Part shown: positions 1,628 to 52,224 of the stretch, piece after piece
Layout: each line of letters starts with the position of its first letter
Numbering within the stretch: the first letter of the stretch is position 1
Assembly (NCBI GenBank): GCA_003427395.1
Contig: BFEA01000013.1
Location: 6,559,038 to 6,622,983 of the forward strand
DNA: 63,946 nt
Direction: 5' to 3'
Source of the DNA: Chara braunii
Lineage: Eukaryota > Plantae > Charophyceae
Program-made: the position numbers and the translations under genes
The notes under the pieces: generated by a model
What the model was told of the DNA's origin: nothing
The model's database searches: none
What the model saw: the letters and a program-made list of their open reading frames with translations, nothing else

Positions 1628-2417
1628 GAGAGACTAACCAGAGGGATGAGTGAGGACTCTTGAGAGGTGCTGACCATGCTTGTTTATGTGTACTTTCTGA
1701 GATTATTATGAGTTCTCATTTTTCCCTCATTCATTTGATTTTGCCTTTGCTCGAGTCAGTCGGTCTTGCTTCTTGCATTGTTCTTATCTGAAGATTGCTA
1801 TCGTGGATGATTCTATCACAGTTCTCAAAATCAGATTGACATAATTTATGCATGCATAGCACCCCATAATTTTATGATTATTATTTGCATAATTTTTCGC
1901 TGTTCTGAATCAAAATAAAAGATTCCTAAGACCGGGGACCGGCGAGGACCGTAATTGAAGGGTCTCGCTCGAAGTCGGACGCACACAAAAGGAAGGGATT
2001 TGCATTATTTAATTTATTTTATTTACTACAATCACATACAAAATCCTGCTTGACAGCCTGTTAGCTTTCCGGTCGGCCGAAGTGCCTCGGCTGGAAAAAA
2101 TGCGACAAAAAAGATTTTTGTGTCCGGAACGAGCCTGGGTCATCATCATCTTTGAACTTTGATTAAGACGTGAGAACTGTTGACATTTCTGTGAGCTTCA
2201 TGTTAATTTTGTTATTGTCGATTGAGTTTCTATTCTCTTGAGAATTACGACTGCTAACTGTGATTTATTTCTTCCTTGTGTGAGGTACCACACCGGATCG
2301 GGAAAGGAGATTGATATTATTGACTGGAGAGAATCGAACTTGACACCAGGTATGACCAATTATCGTCCAACACACTGAAAGGAATTGAAAGGAAGAGAGT
2401 GAGACGGATCGAGACAA

Positions 2418-2831
2418 ATGTTGGTCGACGGTCTTCTGAAAGAATTATCTAAATTTACTACAAGAGGAATATTTCCTTACAGATATGAGGTTTATTGGAG
2501 CTATGACTCTTGTGGCTCAACCATCTGCGTAGTGCTGACTCACTTCTTGGAGGGAGATATCTATGATATCCGCCCCTATGTCAAGGAAGAAGGCAGTAAT
2601 GATGGTGAAAATTTTAATTGGTTATAGGAGATCGTGATCCAATTTATCTATGATGAAAAGACAGACCTCATCAAGCAAAAGAGGAAAGTGGAATGGGGCA
2701 TAATGCCAGTAACATACAAGATTGTCCCAATCCCGCCTATACCTGACAGCTATTGTGATGGGACTAACTGACTGCTGATAATCAACATAGTATTGACAAG
2801 AGAAAAAAAGAACGGTGGTCATGAGAGCTGA
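2418..2831 (+). pseudogene. Family A paralog 2 (two in-frame stops)
   Basis: LSKFTTRGIFPYRY...FLEGDIYDIRPY...NWL*...PIPPIPDSYCDGTN*LLII aligns with LNRFSCKEAFRYRY...FADDTIHDLRPY...PKPLVPFPLTDGTSWLDVI. Confidence 0.75.
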
Positions 2832-2835
2832 ATAG

Positions 2836-3315
2836 ATTTCAGCAGAAGTAATCAGACAAAGAAGGTCAAATTTTGGCAGAGGTTCGGGTCCAAGTCAAGA
2901 GAAGATTGAATGTCTCCTAAGGTCACTAAATACTCTGAGCAAGAAAGAGGCATTTCCATATAAAGTTGTCGGGTATGAGATGGTCGAGAGCGGATGGGAG
3001 CAGGAACGATTATATGTATTGACTTTCTATTTCACAGATCTGAATGTGTATGATGTGAGAATCTATATTCCAAAAGAAAGAAGCTCTGATGCAGTGTATG
3101 GGAGATGCTGGGGATTTGCTGAAGAGGTAGTACTGAGAGAGAAAAAGAGAGTTGAGAGAGAGAACAAATGCTTCACTGGGTCGACTCGATTTATTGTCTT
3201 TGATGGATTTTCAGTCCCTCCCTTACCTGATATCAATCTATCTGAAAATAATTGGTATGCCATGATAAAGTTTGCATGGAAAGTAAAGAGAGTCCAAGAA
3301 AAATACTCTCAGTAG
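2836..3315 (+). pseudogene. Family A paralog 3
   Basis: LLRSLNTLSKKEAFPYK...FTDLNVYDVRIY...CWGFAEE...PPLPDINLSENNWYAMI; the upstream ATG at 2821 is followed by a stop. Confidence 0.75.
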
Positions 3316-3824
3316 CCAAGATACCTACTGTGAGGGGTATACTCTATGAGGTGATAGGGTATGGTAATCCTTTAATGATCCTGAGGTACGAGACTTGTGA
3401 GAGAGGACCCAAAAAATTTCGCATCCAAGTGGTCAAATTCTTGAGTACTGGCAACTTGGACGTACGGATTTATGTACCATCAGGCCTAGAAAAGGAAGGT
3501 GAGTACTTGAAGTGTTAGACATGTGCTTATATTAGTCTCATAAGAACCAAAGAGTGCCTTGAAAAGTTAAAGAGAAAAGTAAATTGGGGAAAAAAAGTAA
3601 GACAATTCGAGAGGCTCCCTGAGTTCTCAGTTGCTGAGGGATTTGAAGGCAGGAGGGATTGGATGCCTCTGTTAGAAGCTATTGCTGAGATTGGTAGAGC
3701 AAGAGAAAAAGACTCTACTGTGAGGATAAAATCCCTACTTTTGAGTACCTTTGAACACAGATTCGAGATCCCTAATTGTGTCGAACCTGAGATCTACCTT
3801 TCAGATGTTGCTTATGATGATTAG
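3252..3824 (+). pseudogene. Family A paralog 4 (one in-frame stop)
   Basis: VVKFLSTGNLDVRIYV...KC*TCA...KRKVNWG (paralog 2 has KRKVEWG)...RRDWMPLL. Confidence 0.7.
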
Positions 3825-4037
3825 CAATGTCCAGTTTGACTGAACAACTGACACTAGGAGTTGTGACAGCCTTTCTTAGATCGCATGAGAGATTCTGCTC
3901 TGAGAATTATCACTGACCAGACTGAGATAAGCTATCTGTTGAAAGTGGTGAAAGTAGAAACTATTGAGAGAGTACCATATCACACTTTTCAGGAACGGGT
4001 CTCTCTTGCAAGAATGATCAACAGTAGGCTGTAAACG

Positions 4038-4304
4038 ATGCAATTTGATAATGAGATTATAGACCAGACTCGATATTTTATGATTCGAGGTACTATAAAG
4101 GGGTATGACAGAAGACTGAGTAGGGATGATGAGAGAGAGTTGATTGAAGATTACATTGGAAGACTGAGAAGGATTGCACTGCCTTTGATCACTACCCAAT
4201 CTATTATTGCTTATACCGTATATGTACAGAACTCTCAAGGGGTAGAGCAGACAAGTGAAGAAAGAAACGAGTCTGTATCCCTTGCTAGAAGAGTGACAGA
4301 CTGA
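4038..4304 (+). CDS. Small ORF upstream of gag (family B)
   Basis: ELIEDY...ALPLITTQSIIAYTVYVQN resembles AVEEY...ALTLVRNHTKIEYTYYLHD of 19125-19379. Confidence 0.4.
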   Translation: MQFDNEIIDQTRYFMIRGTIKGYDRRLSRDDERELIEDYIGRLRRIALPLITTQSIIAYTVYVQNSQGVEQTSEERNESVSLARRVTD

Positions 4305-4366
4305 GGGGCAAAGAAGAAAAGGACAAGAGTGACAGAAAGAGAGAAGAGAATATCTGGGGAAAATGT

Positions 4367-5838
4367 ATGGTCAAGATGGCAGGACGAGGAAAGCCGAGTA
4401 CATTAGCAGGGACTAATGAAGAGGTCCTGGTTGGAGTTATACGGGAGTTGGTTGAGAGAGTTGATACCATCAAAGGAGGGTCAGACATTGCAAGAGCAAA
4501 GAGGTCAAATGAAAGAATTCCCTGCTTCAGAGGACCTCAGGTTAATGACTTTTTGGATGAGTATGAATTATTTGGGCTCAGTTATGGCTGGACAGATAAG
4601 CAACGGCTTAAGCACCTTCTATCTTATTGTGACACTGATTCGAGACTGGCAGTTCAGGAACTAATGGAAGTTGCTACCACCTGGGAAGAAGTCAAGGAGA
4701 GACTGAAAAAAGAATTTGGGAAAGATTCAGTTCCAACCACAACTAAGGACTTACTCAACATCAGAAGAGCTAAATATGACACTTTCAATGTTTTTCTTCA
4801 GATCTTCATCCGAACAGCAAGAAGAATTCCATATTTGGACGAAGCTCGGAGATGCCATATATTTTTGATAAATTTTACTGACACTAAAAGGCAAGCAGTT
4901 CTTAATCAAGCTCAACATTATCGTCTCAGATGAGATGAAATCGTCGCAATCATAAGAACTCTACCTACTTCTCCCATAAGAAATGGTCACTGGATCAGAT
5001 CAGTACTTTGGCCAAGGATTGGGAGACTGAGAATGGAATGAATAGAGGAAACAATCTGACTGCTGAGAATATTCTTCAAAAAGTGATGACTAACTTTATG
5101 CCTGCAAGGCCTGCAACGTATGCTGTGGATGACAGGGGAAAGAAAAAGGCTGAAAGTGAGGAAGATGACGACGATGATGATGACAACGAAAATCATGGTA
5201 AGAAGGGGGATTCGTCCATAACCAAAAGGAATGGGAAGAATGGTGATGGAGGAAACAGAGAGAAAAGAAAATATGATAAGCGTCCTAAGAGGAGTTTTGT
5301 CTGCTACTATTGCGGTGAACGAGGTCATACTACCACTTATTGCAAGCCTCTTGAGGAAGATGTAAGGAGTGGGGTGACAAAGAAAGATGCAATGGACCAT
5401 GTCTGTGATAGTTCATGGAATAAGTTGGATCCCAGACATCTGGTAGGTATGAAACTTCTTATACTTAAACATGATGAAAAGATGAAGATTAAGAAGAAGA
5501 GAAAGACTAATGTGAATGTTCATTTTCTCATTGAAGACTTGCCTAATGAGCTAGTAAAAAAAGCAAGTGACCCTTATACCACGATTGAACTGCCTCTGCA
5601 GTCCTTAACACTGACAGAATGTGAGCCTAGCGAGACATCAACAAGTGAGTCTTCATTGGGAGAGAACCCTACTTTTCAGAATCCTTCTGGATTAGTAGAG
5701 TCCTCTTCCAATGAAATGACTCATCTCCCGGCTAACATGATGTCATTCCATGATGATTTACCCCCAGAACTTATCATGGAACCCAGTGTCAGGGTTGGTG
5801 AAGTGAGGAACCATCAAACCCGTATGACACCTCAATGA
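4367..5838 (+). pseudogene. gag: Gag (capsid + CCHC zinc knuckle), disrupted
   Basis: IPCFRGPQVNDFLDEYE...W capsid-like motif; CYYCGERGHTTTYC knuckle; stop at 4933 and a frameshift. Confidence 0.9.
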
Positions 5839-5978
5839 TATAAGAAAATAAAAGAAAGAAGGTTGAGGAGTCACTTATTAACATCCTTGATGACCCTAAA
5901 CCGGAACGTTCACAGGAAAAGAATGAACAAGGGAGAAAGATAAAATTTATTCTCAAGAGTGATTTCGATGATGAGACT

Positions 5979-6524
5979 GTGATTTCTGATATAATTGCTA
6001 AGATGCTGGAAGAAACTGAAGTGACACTGTCTTTCAACGAAGCAATGACACTAGCACCCAAAATGACAGAAAAGTTGAAAATTTTAATTGAGAAGAAGAA
6101 AATGAAAGTTAATTATTTGGGGTCAATCTTTCCCAACCAAGTGAATAGATCACTACCAGGTTGCAAGATGAGATTTGCAACCATGGGTTGTGGGCATCTT
6201 ACAATTCGCATTAATCAGATGAAGATTCTAACCCTAGTAGATTCTGGGGCAGAGATGATACTTCTTTCACGAAGAACGATGGAAACATGTAATTTATCTA
6301 TTGACAGACCTGCACAAAATGTACTGAGTAATATTGCAGGAGAACTGTCCGTGGTTGGATTTATTGATAATTTGCCTATCAGGGTTGGGACAATGACTGT
6401 GGAGTTACTGGGTTTTGTGGTGCCAGATATGGATCATGACTGTATTTTGGGAACTCCATTCTTGCATAGGATGAAGGCAGTCCAATTTTTCAGTCATGAG
6501 GGGTCATCTTGGATCAGTCTATAG
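5979..6524 (+). pseudogene. pol: Retroviral-type aspartic protease
   Basis: LVDSGAE active site and ILGTPFL motif. Confidence 0.92.
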
Positions 6525-6923
6525 GATTCCGAGACTGCCCCAGAGCAGACTTTTATGGTCAGTACGAAAAATGACTTCAAGCACCAACTATCTACTAATT
6601 CGATCAGGAGGGAAGAATTTGCTGAAAGGATTAAGAAACTAAAGGAGGAAGGAAAACGAGAAGTAAAAGAAGAGATTTCAGTGGGAATCAATCAGGTTTC
6701 GAAAATGATAAAAGCCCTTGGTAAACTCGAGGATGAGAACGAACAAATTGAAGACTTCAAGAAAGCTGTAGAGACTGCTAAGGGAGGAAAGATGGAACTG
6801 AGATTTGCACCGACTCACCTTTTTTTAGGAAAATAGTCACTGGGTCAAAAAGAAAATATAAGCCTAAGGGGGTGAAGAAAAACCCAGTGGCAGTCTTGAT
6901 AGAAAAAAAATTATGATGAAGCC

Positions 6924-8480
6924 TTGGAAAAGGAAAGACAAATTATAAGAGCATTGAGGGAATCAGCAAAACTGGAGAATAGGGTCACCAAAGAGAGGTT
7001 TGACACAATGAAGATAGGCTCAGAACAGTTTATCCTGCCTAAAGAGAAAAAATATATCTTCAAAGTGTGTCAAAAATTCTCTGGTGCTTTCTCCTTTAAT
7101 GATGAAGAGAGAGGGCGGTTGGACATGGACATGATCAAGATGGCCAAGATCTGGACAGTTGATCATGTTCCATGGAATGATAGACCAACCAAGTATGCCC
7201 TAAAGGAAGAAGCGGAAGTAGCAAAGTACCTTAACAAGAAGATTGCATCTAATGTTGTTGAACCTGCTGATGAACCGTATGCTAACCACTGATTTTGTTT
7301 TTGGAAACTAGGGGGCGGACTAAGATGGATACAGAATCTTCAGAAGCTCAATTCTGTGACGGTACGTGATGCAGAGTCTTCCTAATGCTGATCTCCTCGC
7401 TGAATCCTTTGCTGGTCGATGTATTTATTCTCTAGTTGACCTGTATTCTGACTATGATCAGTTCCCTATTGATTCCACTAGCCGGCCAATGACTGCCATG
7501 CACACACCAAGGGGGTTTGTTCAGATGTGCGTGGTACCTCAGGGCTGGACTAACGGAGTGGCAGTGGTTCAAAGGGATATGATCAAAGTCATGCAGGATA
7601 TTTCTTCTGAAATAACCATTCCCTACATTGATGATAATCCTGTAAAAGGACCCTTGGTAAGTGATGAAACTTTGGTCGCAGGGGGAGTCGGAAAGTTTGT
7701 CTGAGGACATGCTGAAAGAGTAAAGACAGTCCTAGAGAGACTTCAGAAGTATAATCTGACTGCCAGTGGGTCAAAGTCCCTTCTCTTCCAACCAGAAGTG
7801 ATAATCTTGGGCTTCAGATGCTTCTCCAAAGGTAGGAGTCCAGATCCCAAGAAGATAGACAAGATCTTGAACTGGCCTCTGCCTCTCAAGAGAGTGACAG
7901 ACGTCAGGAGCTTCTTGAGAACCTGTGGATTCTGAAGAATTTTTATTTCTCATTTTGCTGCCCTTGCAAAACCTTTGAGGGAAATGGTAAGGCAAGGTGC
8001 TAATTTAGCATGGGATGATAAAAGACAAGCTGCAGCAGAAACGTTGCAAGAAAAACTAAGAGATGGTGGTGTAGTGCTGGGAGTGTCATATTATGATGAT
8101 GAGGAGACAAGACCTTTCATCATTGAGGCGGATGGAGGACCAGTTGCTCTGGGTGGAGTGCTTATTTAGAAAGATGAAAATGAGAGAGAAAGACCTCTGA
8201 GATTTGAGAGCAGAACCCTTAATTCTACTGAAAGATGTTACACCCAATTTAGGAAGGAGCTACTGTCAATCATCCATAGCCTCAGGTGTTTTAGGCACTG
8301 CGTCTTAGGAAAGAGATTCGTCTTGAGGACTGATGCATCTGCTGTGATAGGTGCCATTAAAAAACGCCAACAAGTAGATCCAACAGTTAGCAGATGGATC
8401 GCCTTCATCTGGACATATGATTTTAAGCTGAAAAAGATCCCCACTGAGAAGAACAGAGCGGATGGCTTAAGCCGGATTGA
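6924..8480 (+). pseudogene. pol: Reverse transcriptase and RNase H, disrupted
   Basis: DLYSDYDQ, PQGWTN and YIDD motifs. RNase H motifs: FIIEADGG, RPLRFESR, RTDA, NRADGLSR. Several stops and frameshifts. Confidence 0.95.
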
Positions 8481-8939
8481 GTGGCGAGAAGAAGAAGAAG
8501 ATGTGAATGGAACAATTGAAGAATTTGCCTATGTTGATAATTTCCTTAACGAAAAAGATGATGAGGATTATGAGGCACCATGCTCCTACAAGTGGAGTCT
8601 GTGGCCTGAAGAGAGAGACAGTTGGGGAGAAATCTCAAGTGCATACGTTTATGAATCGATTCTCGGGAAAGAAGAAGAAGATGAACCGAACGATTGGTAT
8701 GCAAGAGTTAATGCAGCAGCAGTGGTTGTTCATCACATTGGGGAAAGTTCAGGTTCAAAGGAAGAAGAAAAGAGTGAAAAGAAGAAGGAATATGTATTTT
8801 TTTTCTTTGAAGAATATGATGAAAATTATCAAGAGATTGGCAGGAAGATGGAAAGGGAGCAGCTAAAAGAATATTATTGTAAAGATTCAAGGAAGAAATT
8901 CAGATTAAAGAGAGTACATCTCTTTGTGGATGGTAAGGG

Positions 8940-10087
8940 AGGCTTACCTCCACTAAGAGTGGTCTGTGGTAAAGAGAGGCAGTTAGAGATAATTGTTGCC
9001 CTACATGAGGGGGCCATTGGTGGCCACAGGGCTGCTGAGGCTACCTACTCCAAGTCTGCCAAACTCTACTTCTGGTCTGGCATGAGAGACATGATTTTCA
9101 AATACTGTAAATCATGTGTCTTAGGATGATTGAGCCCTTGTTCCCTACAATTCTGGTAGAGTCAGGTAGTAGAGTTCAGCTGGATCTCATCACTATGCCT
9201 CCAGGCAAGGGTGGGATGAGATACATATTAAACATTAGAAATAACTTCTCTGGATACGTTGAGGCAAAAACTCTGAAAAAGAAGACATCCGAGTAAGTGG
9301 CTGATTGGATAGAGGAAGTCTATCTCAGGTATCCTTTTATCAGAGAATTTGTCTCAGACAGAGGATCAGAATTCAGAAATGAGGTTGTCAGAAGAATTAC
9401 ACTCAGATTGGGTGTCAGAATTCGGTATGTGACTTCTTACCATCCTCAAGCGAATGGACCTGTTGAAAGAGACCACAAAACTCAGAAAGATTCATTGGCC
9501 AAGTGGTGTGAAGAGAAACTCAGTAACTGGCCAAAGGTGTTAAGAGCTGTTGTATATGCTGATAATATCACAGTCAAGAGAACTACTGGTTATGCACTTT
9601 TTATACTGTGGTATGACCGTTATGCTACGTTACCAATTGAGAGTATTGTCAAGACATGGTCAAGTCAAGAGAGTGACAGGGATTATTCTATTTCAGAACT
9701 CCTTCATATCATAATGAGGCAGGTATCTGAAGTTGATCAGGCAGTGATGGATGCATCAGAGAGAATGGCATCCAGTAGGCTATCAGATCAAGAGAGATGA
9801 AACAAGAAAAGGTATATAAGAAAAGAGAAATTGAAGATTGAAGATGTTGTTCTTCTGTTTGACAGTTCTCTTGAGACATGACTAAAAGATTGGAGCCCAG
9901 ATGGCTTGGTCCTTACAGAATCATATGAGAAGCAGAAAACAAGGTATATGAGATCTCGGAAATGGACGAATCCAGAGTACACGATATGGTCTCAGGGTCA
10001 AGACTTGGTAAGTTCATCTTCAGAGACCCTGACTTGATCCCTACAGTGACTCCAAAGAGAGGAAAGAGAAGTCAACCATCCAAGTAA
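8940..10087 (+). pseudogene. pol: Integrase (HHCC, DDE core, GPY), no chromodomain seen
   Basis: HEGAIGGH...CKSC; QLDL, SDRGSEF, YHPQANGPVER; WLGPYRI near 9900. Confidence 0.93.
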
Positions 10088-12195
10088 GAGAACGGTCAAA
10101 GAGGACTGAGAAAGAGCACAGTAAGACACTGAGACAGTGAGGCTCAGTTATCGGCAGACAATGATCATTCTTGCATAGTCAATTCAACATTTCAGTTTCA
10201 GTATTTCAGTTTCAGTACTTCAGTTTCAGCATCTCAGTTTCAATGTACCAGTTTTCAGCAAGTCATTTTATTATCTATTTCAGCAAGCAACTAAGTTAAT
10301 GAGACTATATCTTTGATGCATTGCTGCAGTCGTTCCATGAGTGTTAAGTCATGAGAGTGGGGAGTAACTGTGAGTACAGTTCTGGGAGCATTGACACAGT
10401 GTTAAGAGCTGTGAAACCCATGGCTGTGGCACGTCAAATGATATAAGCAGTTTTATTCTTATCACAAAGAGAAAGCATGATGGGCATAAAGAAGTTCAGT
10501 TCTGTCTGATTGAAAGTTATCAGCAGAAGGACTTCGTGTCTCTAACTAAGTTGTCAATCCAAGAGATTCGGATGAGGGCATGCATAAAGAAGTTCAACTT
10601 TACTTGAGTGAGGGTAGTAAGTAGAGGGACTTCGTGCTTCTTGGTTAAGGACCTGTTTTTACTCAGATGAGGGAAGGGACCTCTCTTAGATCAGAGTTTC
10701 AGTATTTCCTTGAGACTGACTGGACGTCTCTTGGAAAAATAAATCCCAGTTGAGGGAAGAAACCTCTCTGGGGCTAACACAAAGTTTTTGCTTGTGACTG
10801 AAGGGAGGTCTCTTGCAAACTCTTAGTGTTGGCTAGCATGTTATTGTTCAAGTGTCTCTTGAGACTGACGGGACGTCTCTTGAGAGATGTTTGTTCTGTT
10901 ATGGGACGTGGGCAGTCTGCTTGTGGGGTTATGATATGTTTGCCTGACTGTCTGTGTCTGGGGTTTTCTTCTCTAACCTAAAAATGCGTTGATTGTCGGG
11001 GTCAGCCAGAGTCTTACCGCAGTAGGTTGCAATCTGGTGGGGTCAGCGGGTCCCCGACGCGAGTGTCGAATTCCATAGTCAGCTGAGGCTAAGACTCCGG
11101 GGGTCTGGCCTATGAGGTTGAAAGGGGTCAGCTGGAACCCTACCGCAGTCAGAGGATGCAATCCAGTGAGGTTAGCCAGAGCCTGGAACTATGGTTAGAC
11201 CGGGTCCTACGTTCAAAAATCTGGGCGGGGTAGCCAGCGCCCTTGGCCAAAAACTGGTAGGTGAGTCAGTCCCTCACCGCAGTGGTCAAATCCGGGTTCG
11301 GGACAGTTTGACTGACGGGACGTCTACTGTCATAGAGTGACCAGACCCGCTATAGTCTGGGTGTCCTGGCGAGAGTGCCAAAGGGCTGTCATACTCGAGT
11401 AGTGGGTATGATTGGTCCTGGCATGGAGGCAAGTCAAAAGGGCTATCAAGACAAATGGTCTGACTAGTCCTAGCCTGAGGCGGGCCGAATGAGGTATGTC
11501 AGACTAACGGGACGTCGGACATTCCTGGCCAGTGGTAGACCGAAACCAAGGTAATCAATAAATCCTGGGTATGAAGAGCTGTTATGTATTAATTGTTATT
11601 TGTTATTTATTATTTTATTTATGGGTTTTATTTTAATTTATTGATGCTTGGCTGCTGGTTGTCAGAGGGTCTGCTTGGTGGGATATGGTTGTTGTCTGTG
11701 GGACTTGCTGGTTTTGCAAGTACGCAAATACTTATTTGAAGTTCCCAGACCAGGGAAAAGAAAGAGGGTTTGGTATCCCCTCCCTTTTGTCTGAGAAGTT
11801 GAGAAGACGCCTCACTTGGACCAGAGAAAGAAAACAAGGGTTTGGTATCTCCATCAAGTGAGGAGCTGAGAAGATGTTTCTCAAACTGGAGAACAGAAAA
11901 GAGGGTTTGGTACACCCTATTTCCAGCATGGCAGATAGAGTGAATACCCCCCGTTATTGTGGTCGTTCCTGGCATAGATGCCTGATCAAGAACTAAGGTA
12001 ACCTCCATGAGAAGGACCAACAGTTGAACAAGTCGAACAAGAAGACAAAATCCTTCTTAAAATTTTATTGGGTGGCCGACAAGCGACCTGGTTTACGAGG
12101 AACCGATGTCCCTGGCCCAAGGGAGGCAAACTCTCAGGCCTGGGACGCTATGAAGTGGATGGGAATGAGAATTTTTTGTGAGCCAGAAATCGGAT

Positions 12196-12660
12196 TTAAA
12201 AGGCTGAGAAGAAGCCGCGTTTATATAGGACATAAAAGACAACCATAAGTTCAAGCTGGAAAAAGAAGAGAAGGAAGAAAATGTTGAAGAGAACACAGTG
12301 ACTGGGGTGATGAGGAGATGAGGCAGTGCATGGAACAGCAGGAGGCGGAGCGGGCACTATAGCCTTGCTTACGGCAGGGGTGGAAGGAGCTCTTGGGATA
12401 TAAGGAGGGGAAGAAGCACTTTGCGCGCCGTAGCGCGCGTCAAATCTCTTACGAAGGAACTCCATCCTGTCAGGGGATGGAGTCCTTTCATACCACTCTG
12501 CTAATGGATAACGGGGGTATGATTTTGGATGGTCATAGCCTCGTGGCTCATCCTCCTCCTCAGAACTGTAATCACGCCGCGCCCGAGCCGGCGGTTCGTC
12601 TTTAGCCTTCCCTGCTCTTCCTCCCCTTCCTCTACCCTGACCGCGGCGTGCCTCAGGCAT
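12196..12660 (-). CDS. Antisense ORF in 3' internal region, unknown function
   Basis: 154-aa ATG ORF (RGG-rich N-terminus, acidic and Pro-rich parts) between integrase and the 3' LTR. Confidence 0.35.
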   Translation of the reverse strand: MPEARRGQGRGRGGRAGKAKDEPPARARRDYSSEEEDEPRGYDHPKSYPRYPLAEWYERTPSPDRMEFLRKRFDARYGAQSASSPPYIPRAPSTPAVSKAIVPAPPPAVPCTASSPHHPSHCVLFNIFFLLFFFQLELMVVFYVLYKRGFFSAF

Positions 12661-14788
12661 GGTGCACGAGAGGTGGGTCTAGCACCAAAGGCTACGACTG
12701 AGAAGGCTGTGCGAGCAAAGATTATGATGAAAGAGATGGATCAGGAAAAGCAGAAGTAGAAAAATACTGGAAAAAAAATAGGGAAAATAACTGCACTAGC
12801 TAAGGAGGACTACAACATGCTATGTGAAGCTTAGTGCAGAGAGAGATGGGTGGCGCAGAGAAGACAAAGGACCGAAGGTAGGAAAGAAAACTCCGCACTA
12901 AGAGAGGGGGCGAGTACTAGAAGAAGAAGTGAGTACCGAGGGAGAGAGTGAGCGCTAAGGAAACACAAAGAGACGAAATGGCGCAAAGTCGCCTTAAGAG
13001 TTTTGACGTAGGTCACAACAAGAATGAATGAAAGTGTTGGTAGTCACTGTTACTTTATACTCCCTGAGCAACTCGTTTTAACCCAGCCGGGACGCTGGGT
13101 CGGGGTTTGGTATTATGTCGGAGGGCACGGTGGCCGGCCCTCCTCCGTGTACCAAGTCCCTGCTTGGTACAGTCCCTCGCGTCGGTGCCTCGGCCTATAG
13201 ACGTGCCTTGGGATTTCGTTGCCGATTAATGCCCAGGCTGTGCTTCGGCTCAGACCAGTCCTGGTGGTTGTATCCCTAACAAAAGGGGTGCGCCACAGGA
13301 CTTCCATTGGTCCACGCAGGCTCGGCGCCCTGGTGTACAACAGAGCACAACCGATTTGTGGTCATGGTAGCCGCCGGGTTCGCCCTGGGACGCGAAAGCG
13401 AAGAACTGGCGCGGTCTTTTCTACTGCGCGCCGAGTGCCCCGTGGCCAAGTTATGGGTTAGGTGCGTGGAAATGACTTGCTGACGGGAAAGGAAAAGCTG
13501 AATGAGAGAGATAAAAGGGGAAAACAAAAATATAAAAAACAAAGAAAAGAAAGTAGAAAACCTGATCAGCACGTGGATCAGGACCGTTGCTTTAGTCCAG
13601 AATGATTCAGCGACGATCGCCTACTGCATCGTTTGAGTTTTCCCTTTTCTCTTATTATTACTGTTACTATTATTTTTATCATTATTAATTCACCGATTCT
13701 CAGATGTGATTTCCCCTATTGTCGGGATCCTGTCACTTCGCGGGGGAGGCCATCGGTCCTGTTTCCAAGNCGTGGTCGCCGTTAGTTTAGACTGAGCCTG
13801 CATGGGGCTTAAAGGACCGTCTGGTCCTAATGGTTGTGATCTGGGCCAGGTGCAGGGACGGGATAAAGGTAACCCGTGTGGATGATCCAACCACGCACTG
13901 GGGCCTAGTAGCTGAGTTTAGGGGTAGATACGACAAAGACTGAGAAAAGGGGAGGTAGGGAAAAAAAAAAAAAAGAGGAAAAGGGGCGAAGGTTGGTTTT
14001 AGTTTTGAGCGAGGACCTGTACCACTGTTCAGTCGGAGCTGCTGTGCAGGATGAAATCTGAAGCGCCTTATTNCTATTGTTATTATTATTATCATTACAA
14101 TCATTATTAATTCTTTTTTTTTGTTTTCCATTGGTCCATCGCTTCGCGAGAAGGCCAANGGTTCAAATTTCGAGTTCAGCGGTCCACAGCCTAAGTAGGC
14201 CGACCTCACGTATACCGTCTGTNGGCTGGCTCTGATTTGACGCCGTGAGGTAAGACCCCAAAAAGGAGGGCAAACCGCGGTCGCATCGGTAAGAGACTTA
14301 TCACCCACCCTGTGGAGGGTCATAAGTCCCCTCCTTTCCATCGGACACGGGCACCCAGCAGAGACAGTTCGCTGCTCTCTTTTGAGGTGAAAACCTGGGC
14401 GGTCGGGATCCCGTTATGGGACCACCACCTCGGAATAGTAGTCACGTCTCAACGAGACGAAGCGACAGGGACCGATGGCAGAAGGGCTGTGGATATCGAG
14501 GCCATAAGCTTCTTTTCTTTTCTTTTCTCTTCTTTTCTTGAGTGTTCTTTTTTTATAAAATCACAAGTTAAAATATATATATATATTATTTTTGTTTGCT
14601 TTCAAGTTTTTACTGAGCCGTGAAGCCTTTCGCTTAGAGCACACTGGGGTCATCGCCTGGAGCTTTATAAAACGAAGGTTATCCCTACTGCGCAGAAGCT
14701 TGATTCCTGGCACTCGGGGCTCAGCCTGGCTAGGTGCTGCGAGCAGGGATAGTGCGGACTGAGCATTGGCACAGACCGTTGAGAAAGA

Positions 14789-15016
14789 GTGGCTATGACA
14801 CTACATGGCTATAGGCCTGACTGTTGGCGACACACGGTACGCTGGGTTCCAATGTCGGATGAGGGCCCTCAGATCACTACGGTCCTGAACTACAATGGGG
14901 GAGAGGTAGTCCGACCAAAGGTCTGCATAGAAGGGGGGGGAGAGGAGGAGATGCGAGGTGACCAGAGGCTGCAGACTGCCATTTCCGAAGCGCGCGACAG
15001 GGAGGAACGGAGGTGA
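14789..15016 (+). pseudogene. LTR-borne ORF remnant conserved in the related LTR family
   Basis: LHGYRPDCWRHTVRW...EGPQITTVLNY versus LRGYRPRYMRYSWMW...KGTLVETILSY read on the minus strand at about 50800-50930. Confidence 0.55.
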
Positions 15017-16754
15017 AGACGAGACGGGGTGACCGTGGGCTTGAGGGTGTCGGTCATCTACCACGAGACCGAGTCATCAACTGGGACCGAGACAAGGGAG
15101 GAACAACACAACGAGANAGACTCTGGTGGGGAAAGCGAAATGAGTGAGGCAGACCGAGAGACGGATCTCAGNTCCTGGAACNGGCCTGGTGAGATCCANC
15201 ANCATCATCGAGCCGCAAACCGGGTNGAGGAGGGACCCGAGGCCAGCTCTCGACAACCGACGCCGAGGGGCCGCGGGAGAGGAGAGANGCAGAACAAAGG
15301 GAAAGGACGTGTGTGAGGCGTGGCATCGAAGGTTAGCGTTTTTGTTTTTTTCATTATGAGAAACGGGGTATNAGCTACGAGGCGGTTACATGCGTACGCG
15401 TGGCACAGTCGAAGTGTGTGTGAAGCTACTGAGAGGGGTTGAGATAGACAGCGGGGTCGAGGAGAGGTGATCGAGTAGTCAATGCGCNCGTGGCACGCTC
15501 GTGTGGGAGGAATGAAGCATCGGCGAGATGCACGAGTGATCAGNCAGCGAGAGAAAAGGATGCGCTCTCGAAATGCAAGACGCGCGGGCAAGAGGGTGGA
15601 CGAGACTGAACCCGAAATGGGGAGGCTGAGACAGGTAGCGAAGGGGGGCGAGTTTGCAAGGTGGTGACGACAACTGTTTTCTTGGGAGGCACTGTCTCGC
15701 CAACGAGCACTGGGCAACTCATGCAAGCTGAGCAAGGTTGATGTCAACACCAGCGTTGTGGACTGCTCCGACTTTCGTTCCTCTGGCAGTTAATACTTGT
15801 ACGAGCACGATGCACTCCTCGAGAGCTCTGCGCTGACTCGAAGAAGAAGAGGAGGGGGCGCGTGACGGTGACGCGTGGATTTGGTCTCNAGTAGCTCACT
15901 CCAGGGGAGAAGGAGGAGTGTGGAGAGAACATACATAGCCAATAGGCGAGCGCTTCTGGAAAAGGGGTACAATGAGAAGGCCAAAAGGGCGTAGTGGTTG
16001 ATGTTATAATTACTCGGCTTGGAATAACCAGGACTTCGTCACATAAGGGACCCAAGACGTCACTTCTAGGTAGTAAACGAGATGTTAGGGGAAGACTCGT
16101 GATGACCAGCGCGCTTTCCATGAAACGGTTCCCTCATGATGTTGTGGAAACAGACCTCCTCATTACTCATCGGAGCTTGTGTGATCTGCTCGACCAAGAA
16201 CCAGCTGTTGAGAGAGCCTCGTTTCTTTTGGAGACAATCTTACTCACCACTTATCTTGCTACCTCTGAGTGACCCTCAATTTGTGACGGGTACTGTTGTC
16301 AGAGGCTGTTGATGCGCTTCTTTGTGGCCGCTCAGTCTGGAAATTTTCAGATAAGATGGTGACTATTGCAAGATAATGTTTTTTGACTCATAAACTTCAA
16401 TTTTCTCCCCTTCTCTCTTATTTCAGTTAATTAAACCAATTGATCATTGTTAACCGATTACGTGTCATCTTGATAGGGTTAAGCTCGCAGTAGATTGCGA
16501 GAATAAGTGAACAAAAAGGGGGGGGAAGCCCCAACTCATAACAGTAGTTCGAGATGTGCAGGCTATGAAAAGAGTCCAATGTACGACTACTATCCTAAGG
16601 GATTTAGCAAGGTCGAAGTGGTTGGGTAATTTTGGTATTGACACTTGCCTATTGGGTGTAATCCCCTGCGTAGAGTGGCCTATCTGATCGTATGGAAAGG
16701 TTAAGAAAGACGAGCAGCCTTTGTATTCGTGGGTCCTATGCCATGTGTTCACAC

Positions 16755-17160
16755 CATGCGGCTGTCCCACGCGGCTACACCGTGCAGTTATGCCAAGTGA
16801 TTGCACTGTGTGACTGTGCCGTGCAACTGTGTTACGTGACCGCACCGTGTGGCTACATCGAGTGACTGCGCAATGTGCCTGCATTGCGTGATTGCTCAGT
16901 GTACCTGCAACGCGTGACTGCGCAATGTGCCTGCATTGCGTAATTGCTCAGTGTTCCTGCAACGCGTGACTGCGCAATGTGCCTGCATTGCGTGATTGCT
17001 CAGTGTTCCTGCAACGCGTGACTGCGCAGTGTGCCTGCATTGCGTGGCTGCATTCTGTGCTAGTATCGTGTGTCTGCACCGTGTGACTGCATCGTGCTTT
17101 TNCATCGTGAGNTTGCACTATGTGCCTGCACCGTGAGACTGCACCGGGTGACTGCACGGA
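16755..17160 (+). repeat. Tandem repeat inside LTR (52-bp unit built from ~13-bp subunits)
   Basis: GTGACTGCGCAATGTGCCTGCATTGCGTGATTGCTCAGTGT(A/T)CCTGCAACGC at 16862, 16914, 16966 and a partial copy at 17018. Confidence 0.9.
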
Positions 17161-19124
17161 TACGTGATAACGAAGGTTTGCANGTGCTCACCTGATTGAA
17201 TGGTTACCCATAATGGTGTGAGTTCGTTCGTGCCTTGAGATACACCGGGTGCGTGACTACAGCCCTACAGGTGCGTGTGTGTGTGGGTGAATGTTCGGCT
17301 GAATGCACTTNTTGGCCTGGTGGTTACTNNCAGGTNCTTGGTTGAATATTCTAGGCTTATTCCNCGCCAGAATGTCAAAAANGGAATGTGGAGATGATTT
17401 CTATTGGCTNGTGCTCTGTGCTTTGACTTTGATTAGATGGGGAAAAGAAAGGCAGCTCTAAGAAAAATCTTCTATGTTCTTGCAAAGTTCCTACTTGATG
17501 GTGACTAAGAGTCTACTTAGCAAAGATAAGACGAGATTTAATTCGGAGAAAAGTTGTCTGTATTACCCGTCACTACCAACGTGGCCTTGATTATACCGCG
17601 ATAATGCAACTAGCAAGTCCCTACGAAGTGAAGGATCATCAACTGACCCTTATAAGTAAGAATCATTAGTGAGGAGTGGCCCGAAGGCCCTAACTACGGG
17701 TTACGACAGACGCTATTACCACCGCATTAAGGAAGTAAGCAACTCGGTAGAANTGCANATAAGAGACGAGNGANANTAGGTNGCTTCAACNNACGGGACA
17801 GTCCNTTTAAACACATTAATCNCAGGCCTGGGAAGGAACGGGTCCAGTCAAGGGATGTGGGAAAACTGGGAGTGAGTCAACTCTCGAAAAGAGAATGCAG
17901 TATAATATAGCTCTCTGAGTTGTTGATTGGTCGTTTTGTGTTGGACGCCGCCATTCAGTCTTTATTAGGCCGTCCCCGACAGTCTGCCACTATTATTTGA
18001 GTAGGCCTGATTGCCAACAAAGTTCTATTCCATAGCCGGGTTCCAGCAAATAACTCTAAGAGAGCCACACTCCATAGTTCGAGTGGAGACTCACTAGGGG
18101 AAACATGAGCGACGCTGAGATATTGGTAGTCAAGGGCTCTATCTATCTGGATAAGCTTGAGGGTTGGGAAATAGGGGCTATCCAAGACATGGAATCGCAC
18201 AGACAGGAGCAGCGAAAACAAGCTGTCAAGATGGTCATGAGATAAAAATATATAGAATATGTGCTATATTTTTATAGTCACGATGGTAAACTACACAGCA
18301 CTGGTTCATCTCTGGAGACCGTGGAAACAACCAGGGCAAAACTCGATTGAGGCCAAAGGAGCCTGGGCTCTTTATCGGAAATCACAAGCCAGCAATATCC
18401 GAATAGCACTTAGTTTTCTCAGAACAGTGTTCAGCAATCAACCAGTGTACGAACTGCACAGTGCTAGCTCCCGGTTTGAGACGATCTAGTGAGCAAGAGT
18501 AAAGGTTGAACAACAAAAATTTACTAGAAAAACACTCAGATAACATTCGAGCGATGCACTCAAGACAATTAGAAGACGAACTCAGACAATCAGAAGACGG
18601 ACTTAGACAATGAGAAGGCGTATTCGGACAGTCAGAAAACGAACTCAGATGGAAACCAGATTTTGCGACACATGACCTTGGTACTCAGTATTGTTAGCGT
18701 TGATCAGAACACAACGATGTTATTAGGTTAGCAACCAGTCAGGTTTCAGAGCAGCAACCAGATCAGCAAGTAATCAGTCCAAGCAGCCAGGATCAAGTGT
18801 TCTGACCAGTGGTAATCGGAAAGGCAATCAGATCAGTAAGAAATTTTGCAATCAGTTTAGTAAGCAATTTTGCAATCAGTTAAGTAAACAATTTTGCAAT
18901 CAGATCAGCAATAGAATCTGCAATCGAATCGGTAGTCGGTTCGACATACATATCATTAATTAATTCAGCAAGTGATTCAGTAGTCCGAAACTGCAGTTGG
19001 AAACGACAATTTGGAACAACTATTCGAAACAGCCATCAACCCAACAGCCTTTTCACACCTATATTGTCCAAAGGTCACCCGTCTTGGGTTGGGTGAACTG
19101 ATGTAGGGGGAGTTCGGTAAGGAT

Positions 19125-19379
19125 ATGCAGGATAGCAACACTGTTAGAGTCTCCTGCTCTCTGTATCAGGACGCTGCAGAGACCTGGAGGGAGAGTGCAG
19201 TTGAGGAATACAACCAGCAGACTGCTATGATCATGGAACACGCACTGACCCTCGTGAGGAATCATACAAAAATCGAATACACATACTACTTGCATGATAA
19301 GAACGACAGGCTATGTGCCACCATAACTTCTGTGGGTACTATTGAGGAAGCAAGGAGGACTGTTAGCAGCCACCCGTGA
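19125..19379 (+). CDS. LTR-borne small ORF (family B)
   Basis: 84-aa ATG ORF with a probable paralog at 4038-4304. Confidence 0.45.
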   Translation: MQDSNTVRVSCSLYQDAAETWRESAVEEYNQQTAMIMEHALTLVRNHTKIEYTYYLHDKNDRLCATITSVGTIEEARRTVSSHP

Positions 19380-19660
19380 GCGTTTTGTCTCTGAACAAGT
19401 ACAACTCACTTATCCGGACAACCAACAATCATCTAATCAGCAGTCAATCATCAGCAATCAGTTATTATTAGTGATCAGTTTCCAGCAATCAGTCTTCAAC
19501 ATTAATTTTCAACATTCAGTCTTCAACGTTAGTCTTCAGCACTCAGTTTTCAGCATTCAGTTGTCGGCATTTAGCTTTCAACAAACAGCTTTTTTTGCAA
19601 TCAGTTCAGGTAACCAGCTCTCCATGACCATCTGGTCAGTTTGCACTGGCAAGAGTACTG

Positions 19661-20314
19661 ATGAGCACAGTTCAGTCTATGCCGGTCAGTGAGTCAGTGT
19701 TGGCCAACCTCAACCGGTTTTCATGCAAAGAGGCATTCCGTTATCGGTATGTTAGTGTCATTGGTTTAAGACAGGGAGATCTGTCAATCTTCATTGTCCA
19801 GACCAGTTTTGCTGATGGCACTATCCACGATCTGAGGCCTTACATGAAGAAGGGCAAGGAAACTCATGAACTTTTCGATCCAGTCTGGATCTCAGCCACC
19901 GAATACCTTGAGCAGAGAGAGAGGGAACTCGATGAGAATGGCACTGCGTTGATTCGCAGCTTCGGGCCGATGCTTTATACTGACTATCATAAGCGTCCAG
20001 TCCCTTCTCCTCTCACTGATGGCACGAGTTGGTTGGATGTGATTGGTTTGGCAAAGCGGTACATCTCTCCGGCGGTGATCGCGCTGACCGAGCCCACCGA
20101 GTATCCCTACCTCAGACGAGGAGTATTTTCAGTGGACGTACTGCCTACTTTGTGGGAGGAGTTTTGCTCCATGGTTAACTACCGCATCATGTGCCTCGGA
20201 TGGTCGTGCTCAGAGCTTGCTGGCTACAGGTGGCATTTCGTCACGAAACCTCAGTCTCAGATTGTACGTGGGCGTGGGTCTCGGCACCAGAGAAGATCAG
20301 TGAAAAGAGATTGA
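19661..20314 (+). CDS. LTR-encoded family A protein (3' LTR copy)
   Basis: 217-aa ORF; differs from 965-1627 by substitutions and an in-frame 9-bp indel. Confidence 0.7.
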   Translation: MSTVQSMPVSESVLANLNRFSCKEAFRYRYVSVIGLRQGDLSIFIVQTSFADGTIHDLRPYMKKGKETHELFDPVWISATEYLEQRERELDENGTALIRSFGPMLYTDYHKRPVPSPLTDGTSWLDVIGLAKRYISPAVIALTEPTEYPYLRRGVFSVDVLPTLWEEFCSMVNYRIMCLGWSCSELAGYRWHFVTKPQSQIVRGRGSRHQRRSVKRD

Positions 20315-20814
20315 GAGAGACTGACCAGAGGGATGAGTGAGGACTCTTGAGAGGTGTTGACCATGCTCGTTTATGTGTACTTTCTTAGATTATTACGAGT
20401 TCTCATTCTTCCCTCATTCATTTGCTTTTGCCTTTGCTCAAGTCAGTCGGTCTTGCTTCTTGTATTGTTCTTATCTGAAGATTGCTATCGTGGATGATTC
20501 TGTCACAGTTCTCAAAATCAGATTGACATAATTGATGCATGCATAGCACCCCATAATTTTATGATTATTATTTGCATAATTTTTCGCTGTTCTGAATCAA
20601 AATAAAAGATTTCTAAGACCGGGGACCGGCTAAGACCACAATTGAAGGGTCTCGTTGGAAGTCGGACGCACACAACAGGAAGGGATTTGTATTATTTAAT
20701 TTATTTTACTTACTGCAATCACATACAAAATCCTGCTTGACAGCCTGTTGGATTTTCGGTCGCCCGAAGTGGCTCGACTAGAAAAAGTGCGACAGCGTGC
20801 GCGCACGCGCGCCC

Positions 20815-27197: not shown

Positions 27198-28808
27198 ATG
27201 GCGCGTTGGCTGGAGTTTGTGCCCAATGAAGACTTCGAGAACGACCCTAGGGCAAAGCACGTCATCTGGTAGTACGTGCAGAAGGGTCAATTGTGAACCA
27301 ACTCTTCGGAAGCGGACCCGAAGGACAATCACGAGTTACGTTGCAGATTGTGTGGTCACCAGTGAGTCAACAACCAAACCAAGGCCACCCAACACTTCAA
27401 CACCTCACGCGAGCATGACAGGTGCCCGCACTCGTGCGTGAACATTCTTAGGGAGGTGCAAACTTGAAGGGCAAACATAGCCTTGAAGGGTTCCCTACTT
27501 GTCTATGTGCGGGAGGCTGACAGGGATGGTGAGCTCGATTTTCGAGCATCCCCTCAACTGCAGATTGCCTGGCGGTGTAGCACGACAACCCCCCTCTGGT
27601 CCCTGTGCGTGATTTGGCATAGGGACGAGGGCGGGCGGAGTGAGAAGGCCCCGCACTGGTGGTACGGTAGGACGGAGCGCGCCCCTTCGAAGGAGTGGGC
27701 GCCTCTGGAGCAGTGGGCCCATCTAGTGGAGGGTGAGAGGGAGCAGAAGAGAACCCGTCAGGGGTAGAGGGGGCAGGAGAGGGCTCGTGTGGGGGAGGGG
27801 ACGAGTGGGACGAGACAGAGCATGTAGAGCACGTAAGGGCGAGACGGTTTGATCCGGTGAGGAAGTGACCGTATGGTGCTTCGCATTTGCAGCCAGGGAG
27901 GAGACGGTGTGTGCTTGAGGCGGCTACTCGCGCTCCGCAGGACGAGCAACAATGGTGGAGGGAGAGGATGCTCCAACGAGCGAGAGATGAGGGCATACAT
28001 GTCCCTGCCGACCTCGAGGAAGGGCTGGCAGGAGACCCTGCAGAGCGTAGACAGGCTCGACACCAAGTGCCCAGAGTAACCCAGACTCGTCTTGATAGTT
28101 GGGTCGAGCACCCCATCCAGTACGACCTCGACATGGAGTACATTAGATTCTTCGTGGGTTGTGGTATGTCGTTCAACGTCGCTAGATCAGAATGGTATTT
28201 GACTTTACACGACGTCTAACTTAGTCAGTTCAGGGGTCCGTACTGACCTCATGAACCAGGGTCTTAGTTACTTCGCAGGACTATTGTCCCTGTTGTACGA
28301 GGAGCTCGGTGAGCGTTTGCGGTATTATCGCGAGTCGTGGTCTGAGGGGGTCACTTTCATGATGGGCGGCTGGTCGACTCAGGCCAACCGCCCTCTCTGC
28401 AACTACTTGGTTGAAGGGAGGTTGGGTGCATCCCTACACCGTGTTGAGGATATGTTTGGTAGGGAGTGGATCGGAGCAGGTTTGTACCTCATATGAAGGG
28501 AACTCATTCTAGAGATTGACGCTCAACATGTGGTAGCGATATGTACGGACAACGCGTTGGCCGACAAGGAGGCTTACTGTTTGCTCCATAATGATCAGGG
28601 TCTTTCATTGCGAAAGATCACTTCGATCCCTTGCTCAACCGACTACTGCAAATTGATGCTTACACACATCGCCATACATCCGTTGGTAGCGTATGTCATT
28701 GCAGAGGGGCGAGATATTACTTTGTTTTTTCGGCGGCTCTCACGGGCAGCGTACCTCCTAAGTCAACAGTCTCCAACTGTGTCCTTGATCCGCCCGGGGG
28801 AGACGTGG
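27198..28808 (+). pseudogene. hAT transposase N-terminal half (BED-type zinc finger + DUF659)
   Basis: IW*YV...CRLCGH...QHF...C; FFVGCGMSFNVA; GVTFMMGGWS..RPLCNYL; ICTDNA; SLIRPGET. Confidence 0.9.
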
Positions 28809-29140
28809 TGTCGCATTGTTTGGAGTCGGGCCACTTCTGGCGACCAGAAAGCCAACAGGCTGTCACGCAGGATTTGGATGATGTTTGCAATAAAGAAAAT
28901 AAATAAATTAAAGCAAATCCCTTCCTATAGTGTGCGTCCGACTTCGAGCGAGACCCTGCAATTGCGGTCTTCGCCGATCCCTGGTCTTAGGAATCTTTTA
29001 TTTTGATTCGGAACAACAAATAATCATGCAAATAATAATCATAAAATTCTGGTATGTCATGCATGCATCAACTTTGCCAGTTTCCTAATTTGAGAACTGT
29101 GACAGGATCATCAGGGAACATGATCATCAAACAAAGGCAG
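28809..29140 (-). repeat. LTR 3' terminus homologous to about 1800-2107
   Basis: Reverse complement matches the LTR end, e.g. GTGCGTCCGACTTCGAGCGAGACCC and GGTCTTAGGAATCTTTTATTTTGATTC. Confidence 0.9.
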
Positions 29141-52220: not shown

Positions 52221-52224
52221 GAGG

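Follow-up and report, generated by a model that had tools for sequence, protein, structure and literature searches.

The window that we analyzed, 63,946 nucleotides of Chara braunii contig BFEA01000013.1, contains a decayed Gypsy element whose 3′ long terminal repeat (LTR) carries several open reading frames, and a second, diverged copy of the family on the minus strand (Table 1). Pfam domains occurred at 4289-9800 in the order gag-PR-RT-RH-INT, as in Ty3/Gypsy, with gag being weak (E 6e-4, below the cut-off). Also as in Ty3/Gypsy, the element is bounded by direct terminal repeats with TG...CA ends, 94.7% identical across 2.1 kb; the two LTR copies (1-2107 and 18692-20794) share a GCGACA terminus. 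The Pfam output contained no second RNase H between RH and INT. No chromodomain was found after the integrase, and all that matched in the three reading frames of 9801-10138 were SH3-like and integrase C-terminal domains, weakly; this copy being decayed, a chromodomain may have been lost.

Direct LTR-LTR alignment covers only 18692-20794, and 13116-18691 was assigned to the LTR through homology to the second copy. Because 18692-20794 aligns to 1-2107, B2 (19125) and A (19661) lie certainly within the LTR, and with the LTR start at 13116 the stretch 14640-18691 is intra-LTR as well. Read depth did not mark this start. No TGG-type PBS was found after 2107, and the best self-priming match that might have placed the transcript start reached 9 nt and was unusable. 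A tRNA-Asn call at 43027 was discarded because it falls inside the other element's coding region.

Table 1. Features of the first element and of the diverged family copy, in window coordinates. TCAG counts are given as sense strand versus other strand.
Feature	Position	Strand	Remarks
5′ LTR	1-2107	+	Truncated by window start; 94.7% identity to 18692-20794
Family-A paralog, leader	2418-2831	+	Two stops
Family-A paralog, leader	2821-3315	+	One stop near start; close to P0007/P0008
Third family-A paralog, leader	3276-3824	+	Most diverged; one stop
Two short ORFs, leader	3885-4034 (remnant), 4038-4304	+	Mutual paralogs (z 9.4)
gag-protease-RT-RNase H-integrase	4289-10138	+	Disrupted by stops and frameshifts
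Third TCAG array	10150-10330	+	Directly after pol; 9 vs 0
3′ LTR	13116-20794	+	7,679 bp; TGTCG...CGACA
ORF C	14795-15316	+	173 codons; in-frame stop 15014-16 private to this copy
15994 frame	15976-16272	+	98 codons stop to stop; no gene support
Tandem repeat array	16835-17157		13/26/52-bp units, intra-LTR
ORF B1	18105-18350	+	81 codons; stop at 18243-45; B2 paralog
Spacer before B2	18351-19124	+	TCAG 21 vs 2; donor-like site 19117
ORF B2	19125-19379	+	84 codons, open
Spacer before A	19380-19660	+	TCAG 13 vs 1; single ATG; donor-like site 19610
ORF A	19661-20314	+	217 codons; 135-residue family-A domain, then tail ending Arg-rich
Diverged copy, LTR end	28809-29112	-	83% identity to 20493-20794; adjoins DUF659 hAT-like gene 28203-28808
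Diverged copy, LTR start	50478-52220	-	Decayed ORF C ortholog at 50922-50704

Conserved frames in the LTR and leader

Judged from the sequence comparisons, the LTR carries four protein-conserved frames, C, B1, B2 and A, of three protein families. The first-pass annotation had proposed five same-strand ORFs, at 14789, 15994, 18259, 19125 and 19661. Those at 19125 and 19661 stood as B2 and A, and the one at 14789 proved to be a conserved frame whose true bounds run from an ATG at 14795 to 15316 (C). The 18259 ORF was rejected as a gene, being a +1 shadow frame over the conserved frame of B1, and the 15994 frame had no partner at z>3 among 15 other peptides and no match to the A, B or C profiles.

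ORF A was open in both LTRs, as the same annotation had stated, with 217 codons in the 3′ LTR and 220 codons in the 5′ LTR (965-1627), the difference being one in-frame 9-nt indel at 20081. An ATG ORF of at least 217 codons occurred in 1 of 300 simulated LTRs. Alignment of 10 family-A sequences, about 20-25% identical and among them six open ORFs from ENA contigs that stand alone and encode 131-164 aa, revealed invariant residues L14, F50, D57, R59 and Y61. A and B2 were present in both LTRs and in L001, one isolated B2+A fragment that is adjoined by an unrelated Ulp1-protease gene. The copy of B2 in the 5′ LTR (434-688) contains a stop at 494-96. B2 and B1 gave a translated score of 90, compared with at most 39 in 35 other frame pairs.

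The peptide encoded at 14801-14893 matched 11 of 31 residues at 50922-50830 on the minus strand (z=17 against 300 shuffles), and the frame pair resumed beyond an in-frame gap at 15026/50766, which upheld the earlier claim of conservation at about 50800-50930. Identity between C and an open copy, residues 1-174 of P0001, was 108 of 173 residues. The C frame was preserved in copies that are 62% and 42% identical to it. The expected preservation within the family was likewise borne out: the C stop was missing from 94-98% of family depth and no indel in C reached a 25% share. P0001, a Chara gene model on another contig, contains C followed by A, the order found in the LTR. The Chara 'genes' P0001 and P0002 are accounted for as fusions of LTR ORFs with RT fragments of unrelated origin.

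Between the 5′ LTR and gag, the leader holds five paralogs arranged head-to-tail, three of A and two weak ones of B. A19661 scored 112 against A2418, and no other frame pair exceeded 33. The third leader paralog failed the direct frame test against A19661 (25 vs 34) and was linked only via other members, and the short ORFs at 3885-4304 were weakly family-B-like (best z 3.5). The ATG of the 2821-3315 ORF overlaps the final 11 nt of the 2418-2831 ORF. No leader paralog of C was found. Because A and B paralogs also occur in the leader before gag, the ORF array straddles the LTR end; the proposal of a multi-ORF LTR cassette therefore holds for the several protein-conserved frames within the LTR, not for their confinement to it. 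On present comparisons, C, B1, B2 and A are likely to form the leading portion of an accessory array of nine ORFs that continues past the LTR end as far as gag. From the position of the ORFs in the LTR it follows, as had been suggested, that solo LTRs would scatter these genes.

Tests for selection were small. For A versus L001, dN/dS was 0.47 (p=0.009), compared with 1.61 and 0.72 in the other two frames. Pooling A and B gave a pN/pS of 0.53 (p=0.004), or 0.60 at non-CpG sites (p=0.029); B alone gave 0.56, which was not significant (p=0.14). In one non-coding control, with 8 differences, the value was 0.24 (p=0.05). Within the C family, 11 of 20 differences fell at third positions (p=0.038). 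Mismatches by codon position were 5/3/11 in the second C block and 15/13/17 in the 14789 motif block; the ratio for the first C block was 1.06. Thus the predicted third-position bias appeared as a synonymous excess for A and for A+B and was absent from the 14789 motif block. This excess arises between copies about 12-13% apart within coding frames. In the B2 and A frames of the 5′ LTR, 15 of the 17 listed family differences were non-synonymous; 11 of the 17 were private to the 5′ LTR, and five of the six common to both LTRs were non-synonymous. We conclude that genuine selected genes very probably reside inside the LTR.

The three protein families had no database match. Neither A nor C matched Pfam or PDB, matches of B2, 15976 and 18259 to Pfam were only sub-threshold, and no clear fold match was obtained for A, B or C. 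Among proteins of near length, neither a single-protein search with A nor a family-B profile search returned relatives, and no locus was found in viral contigs. The predicted fold of A (pLDDT 75, pTM 0.71) gave a best match at Z 5.2 (rmsd 2.9, 85 aligned), no Foldseek match at E<=0.001 in PDB or BFVD, no usable match in the ESM Atlas, and a TDP2 match at E 0.17 and TM 0.28. The weaker model of B (pLDDT 70, pTM 0.48) gave a best match at Z 5.6 (rmsd 3.3, 72 aligned). As far as these models can tell, the fold matches of A and B reflect only common alpha/beta arrangements. The invariant F-x6-D-x-R-x-Y of A resembles the motif of the PC4/Sub1 single-strand-binding domain; this assignment found no support, there being no Pfam or PDB sequence match and no PC4/Sub1 entry among the 50 fold matches listed. 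An EEP nuclease half-fold was likewise unsupported: the Atlas neighbours of P0003 were EEP clusters at TM 0.52-0.59, below threshold, from a model with pLDDT 0.56. A single superfamily of A, B and C was rejected, hhalign probabilities being just 0.07-0.2%. An alignment of C to A covered 58 columns in plausible register, with E=0.3. No transmembrane segment was predicted; the top 19-residue hydropathy was 0.34-1.24 in 8 ORFs, unlike an env-like aORF. The tails of A and C are Arg/RG-rich. In C, a folded-looking N-terminal half leads into an acidic central part, whose net charge is -7, and then into the basic RG-rich tail.

Expression and possible function of the array

The TCAG arrays are biased to the sense strand, and their counts exceeded those of all 1000 shuffles in three of the four regions tested. 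An acceptor scan identified two strict sites in the LTR, neither of them within a TCAG array. RNA set X6 had 62 reads over 14 kb. X7 had 3,372, which showed no preference for either strand and roughly tracked DNA in their profile, and X8 had 2 reads on C; these reads provided no support for expression of the LTR ORFs. None of the 15 joints listed, out of 489, had RNA support, and no RNA data were listed for 17700-20794.

With moderate confidence, we favor an explanation that combines four LTR genes, an accessory array, spliced expression and nuclear proteins that regulate RNA. Tandem duplication within the 5′ leader would have enlarged the array, part of which then fell within R/U5. A promoter at 13.1-14.2 kb would drive the array, so placed that the LTR genes would, somewhat more probably than otherwise, lie downstream of it in R/U5. 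Donor-like sites at 14250, 14289, 19117, 19610 and 2350, together with the TCAG-rich spacers, could make each LTR gene the first in an mRNA, so that C, B1, B2 and A would come from alternatively spliced transcripts of the LTR; the leader ORFs, which abut one another, may be translated through re-initiation. Control might then resemble that by Rev or CERV, with splicing or export of long unspliced RNA governed via sense-strand UCAG arrays. Nuclear proteins acting on the strand-specific TCAG arrays next to the genes are our tentative candidates for such RNA regulators. It is doubtful that the LTR is a self-contained four-gene transcription unit, in which a promoter close to the LTR start and a poly(A) signal at 20601 would enclose C-B1-B2-A in an R region kilobases in length. 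If it were, the family being abundant, each of its solo LTRs would be a mobile operon whose novel regulatory proteins act in trans, and replication of the element would involve a terminal redundancy of several kb.

The selected genes might instead act on DNA, as VANC-like or foamy Tas-like, sequence-specific anti-silencing or transactivating factors with the TCAG or 26-bp arrays of the LTR as their binding sites. The arrays do resemble VANC targets as far as these are described, being short one-orientation motifs that are dense in non-coding parts (PMC5735166), and both the charge distribution of C and an expansion of paralogs at about 20% identity, which suggests an arms race, would suit such factors. 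However, our searches found no DNA-binding family or fold, and the arrays directly precede ATGs or follow pol rather than occupying the putative promoter. We consider this reading unlikely.

Less likely still, the ORFs could be vestiges, formerly functional leader ORFs that were duplicated by a shift of the LTR border and are now passengers, so that the synonymous excess would record past selection. Such an origin fits the leader paralogs, the stops in C and B1, the weakness of dN/dS values of 0.5-0.6 and the predominance of non-synonymous changes among the six lineage-shared differences. It fits poorly with C, which lacks a leader paralog and yet has kept its frame at both levels of identity, in-frame gap included, and whose stop is private to this copy. 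Moreover, post-insertion decay alone drives pairwise dN/dS toward 1, and the excess is seen between copies that are already some 12-13% apart.

That the LTR is much shorter, 13116-18691 with C and B1 belonging to the 3′ internal region or to a nested insert and only B2 and A being LTR genes, is very improbable. Homology to the second copy starts at 13114/52222, with none before, exactly where TGTCG opens both copies. The second copy interrupts a DUF659 hAT-like gene, and both its ends adjoin one hAT-like frame, the halves of which are presumably joined across the copy by a motif; in addition, P0001 joins C and A at another locus. These points outweigh the facts that the window cuts the 5′ LTR and only 2.1 kb is seen twice, that the polypurine candidate before 13116 is a G-rich mixed tract rather than a purine-only one, that the second copy lacks an equivalent of 15370-18100, that the 4-bp flanks of the second copy (ends 52220 and 28809) agree at three of four letters, the 5′ flank of the first element being outside the window, and that no database match was obtained for the right-hand part of the hAT-like gene. 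For A, B and C, the idea of chance ORFs in a long repeat, conserved only as shared DNA, is largely refuted by frame-specific paralog similarity where blastn gave no DNA-level pairing and by the open stand-alone relatives, although the number of ATG ORFs of at least 70 aa in the LTR equals expectation (4 observed, 3.6 by chance) and this reading does hold for 15994 and 18259.

Comparison with known systems

LTRs are usually viewed as non-coding, and surveys of plant retrotransposon ORFs cover the internal region and long ORFs only. Our literature search on LTR-internal retrotransposon genes found no description of a four-gene LTR, and that on Chara Gypsy elements found none of these elements; the Chara genome paper and its supplements lay outside the search and may describe them. 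Genes encoded in or overlapping the LTR exist in retroviruses, among them MMTV sag, HIV nef and foamy-virus tas/bet. As in those viruses, the coding sequence here lies inside the terminal repeat and would be duplicated at each replication. The retroviral cases involve one gene, in U3, of enveloped vertebrate viruses, whereas here there are four genes, possibly in R/U5, and no env-like protein. No sequence similarity of the LTR ORFs to retroviral LTR genes was found.

Plant Ty3/gypsy elements with an aORF or eORF include Ogre, Tekay/Retrosat2 with 5′ ORFs, Athila and Retand (PMC7264820, PMC6317226, PMC11728184, PMC11963269, PMC3485330). They share with the Chara element family-conserved, function-unassigned ORFs beyond gag-pol, some of them 5′ of gag, and the pairing of tandem arrays with very large LTRs in elements that are not chromoviruses. 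The plant aORFs described there are internal, usually one or two per element, whereas here the LTR itself holds four ORFs of 81-217 codons, and paralogs are found to either side of the LTR end. Set against 'internal region' as an aORF criterion, the four ORFs are in the LTR and the five paralogs in the internal leader. The plant aORF survey counted only ORFs of at least 250 codons. At 7.7 kb, the LTR is longer than the approximately 5 kb given in PMC6317226 and the 6.5 kb given for Ogre in PMC6431247. It also exceeds the 6-kb maximum LTR stated for an algal LTRharvest run (10.1101/835561), so that such elements may escape detection in at least one such run.

The planarian giant Gypsy elements Burro and GYPSM1 likewise combine giant size with accessory coding capacity; they differ in that their additional domains, of recognisable fold, sit in one huge polyprotein or in an upstream ORF, and in having env (PMC6431247). 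VANC proteins of VANDAL transposons are fast-evolving anti-silencing proteins whose binding has been shown (PMC5735166). They resemble the present case as fast-evolving element-encoded factors next to oriented short-motif arrays; VANDAL is a DNA transposon, and binding by the Chara proteins is hypothetical. Our working model is CERV of C. elegans Cer1, an accessory protein made from a spliced mRNA and needed for export of unspliced genomic RNA (PMC10309623); the abstract gives no LTR location for CERV, and function here is proposed by analogy. If the four genes in the LTR are indeed under selection, a non-enveloped Gypsy lineage would bear a load of accessory genes like that of complex retroviruses; the family is highly repeated, and its algal host is close to land plants.

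Extent of the LTR

Because the window cuts the 5′ LTR, the first-pass claim that the LTR itself is a multi-ORF cassette needed an outside anchor. Self-comparison of the window aligned the two LTRs over 1-2107 and 18692-20794 (94.7% identity, both ending in GCGACA). The coding region between the LTRs follows the Gypsy order (gag, protease, RT, RNase H, integrase) and is interrupted by stops and frameshifts. In an nhmmer comparison of 12800-15500 with the rest of the window, 13114-13610 matched 52222-51687 (E 4e-35) and 14095-15370 matched 51658-50478 (E 3e-30), with no homology upstream of 13114. TGTCG opens both copies, at 13116 and 52220, and the DNA preceding them is unrelated. The family has a further LTR end at 28809, and 3 of the 4 letters flanking it agree with those flanking 52220. 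On the left this flanking DNA is a DUF659 hAT-like frame, which can be read on into the right flank through a presumed joining motif; a database search with the right half gave no match. On the basis of this homology start, the shared TGTCG, and the ends and hAT-like flanks of the second copy, 13116-20794 was taken as the 3′ LTR. Its middle, 15370-18100, was seen once only and may contain additional sequence.

An insertion of 23 kb, which has LTR ends of the family as its borders and further elements nested within it, appears to interrupt the hAT-like gene. No TGG-type primer site follows the LTR end in either element (2108-2145 and 48440-48480), and in both a GAACGA-CC-GGT-like motif, which may pair with a tRNA T-arm, lies about 20 nt downstream. 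The family is highly repeated, since about 41,000 and 46,000 contigs from two DNA runs of one sample match the first 14 kb, contig totals not being equal to copy number.

Features of the element and its surroundings (window positions)
Feature	Position	Remark
3′ LTR	13116-20794	7,679 bp
ORF C	14795-15316	read through one stop
ORF B1	18105-18350	
ORF B2	19125-19379	
ORF A	19661-20314	217 codons
Leader paralogs of A	2418, 2821, 3276	
Leader ORFs	3885, 4038	weak resemblance to B
Further donor-like sites	2350, 14250, 14289	14289 kept in second copy
Only AATAAA in LTR	20601	in part conserved in diverged copy
Non-coding blocks	13281-13548, 14284-14423	69-73% conserved between diverged LTRs; donor-like site in second block in both copies
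Antisense ORF	12196-12660 minus	154 codons, RG- and P-rich, between pol and 3′ LTR; no match in Pfam search
hAT-like halves	28203-28808, 52222-52770	
Related Gypsy element	37-45 kb	RT block 65/108 identical
Its long sense ORF	37262-39030 minus	after integrase; gag-like start, coiled-coil part; intron-like stretch precedes

Reading frames in the LTR and leader

The LTR holds four ATG ORFs of at least 70 aa, a chance number (3.6 expected in simulations), and only A is too long for chance (1/300 simulations). Its similarity to the leader paralogs is frame-specific, with z of 16-19 for the first two; the third is linked only via other members. Six stand-alone ORFs of 131-164 aa also belong to this family, whose alignment has five invariant columns across 10 rows, and A has its nearest named relatives in two gene models of Chara braunii (84% and 58% identity), which makes this species the likely host. 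B2 is paralogous to B1. C is identical at 108 of 173 positions to an open copy in gene model P0001, and 42% identical, across an in-frame gap, to the copy at 50922. Three of the five ORFs named in the first-pass annotation thus stand: those at 19661 and 19125, and that at 14789 with its span corrected. The frame at 18259 is a +1 shadow of the conserved one starting at 18105, which replaces it, and the frame at 15994, which found no partner in protein comparison, falls. We conclude that the retrotransposon carries putative accessory genes, of which the LTR holds four and the leader at most five more.

The gene models P0001 and P0002, named as RT proteins, start with C, A or both, fused to fragments of RT, and are probably annotation chimeras.

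A was modelled as a small alpha/beta domain (pLDDT 75, pTM 0.71); the fold of B is less sure. Arg/RG-rich tails end A and C. For A, B and C, sequence-family and structure searches gave no family or fold match above threshold, no transmembrane segment was found, and profile-profile comparisons did not unite them. As leads we note a resemblance of the F-x6-D-x-R-x-Y of A to PC4 and, in the Atlas, neighbours with the EEP fold.

Selection on the LTR frames

A scan of a metagenome collection, with 1 of 65 pattern matches confirmed, supplied B2 and A in a third copy (fragment L001). Against it, dN/dS was 0.47 for A (p=0.009; other frames 1.61 and 0.72) and 0.56 for B2 (p=0.14). Six tests on non-coding controls from two diverged stretches gave 0.70-1.54; a third stretch, with only 8-9 differences, gave 0.24-1.31. 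Pooling A and B gave a pN/pS of 0.53 (p=0.004), or 0.60 (p=0.029) with CpG sites removed. In L001 a Ulp1-type protease ORF (465-1154; Peptidase_C48, E 7e-25), typical of a DNA transposon, adjoins the truncated LTR fragment.

The frame of C is kept in family copies: over 14760-15116, two DNA runs contained no common indel, and another letter replaces the stop in 94-98% of depth. Twenty DNA rows were scored of 27 listed, 19 reaching 25% in X2 or X4 and one in X4 only; third positions held 11 of the 20 differences (p=0.038) and 14 of all 27 (p=0.036). The motif block that had suggested conservation with about 50800-50930 minus has no third-position bias (15/13/17), whereas the next block does (5/3/11).

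The 5′-LTR frames speak against selection: 15 of the 17 listed differences, a ranked subset of more than 2,200 rows, were non-synonymous. Eleven of the 17 were private to the 5′ LTR, which is what decay predicts, but five of the six common to both LTRs were non-synonymous. Overall, the LTR frames are real and purifying selection acted on them in the past, though its strength is uncertain.

Between its two LTR copies (965-1627 and 19661-20314), ORF A has a synonymous excess (0.49, p=0.037), which is odd for purely post-insertion drift; the LTRs may stem from different parent copies.

Proposed expression and comparison with known elements

Among the leader ORFs, one ATG overlaps the last 11 nt of the preceding ORF and another lies 3 nt after a stop, an arrangement that would suit re-initiation. 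The spacers before B2 and A are rich in sense-strand TCAG (21 versus 2 and 13 versus 1), and a donor-like site also precedes each gene; a third array follows pol (9 versus 0; control region 8 versus 6). Together with the AATAAA, these features fit transcription from a promoter in the early part of the LTR, with a ladder of splices that would place each LTR gene first on an mRNA. RNA reads numbered 62 in X6, 3,372 without strand bias in X7 and 2 in X8; X11 gave one diverged contig, RNA by guess only, with its match starting at the start of C. None of the splice joints listed had RNA support.

The products might manage long unspliced RNA, by analogy with CERV, which does so for Cer1 (PMC10309623). 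The main rival is a role on DNA resembling that of the VANDAL anti-silencing protein VANC (PMC5735166).

The antisense ORF occupies the same slot as those of Retand/Grande, a likeness of position. LTR-encoded genes are known from retroviruses (sag, nef, tas/bet). The literature searched, with the Chara genome paper and supplements outside it, yielded no multi-gene LTR and no description of these Chara elements. Plant Gypsy elements often carry extra ORFs, but these are described in the internal region (PMC7264820, PMC11963269), whereas here four lie within the LTR itself.
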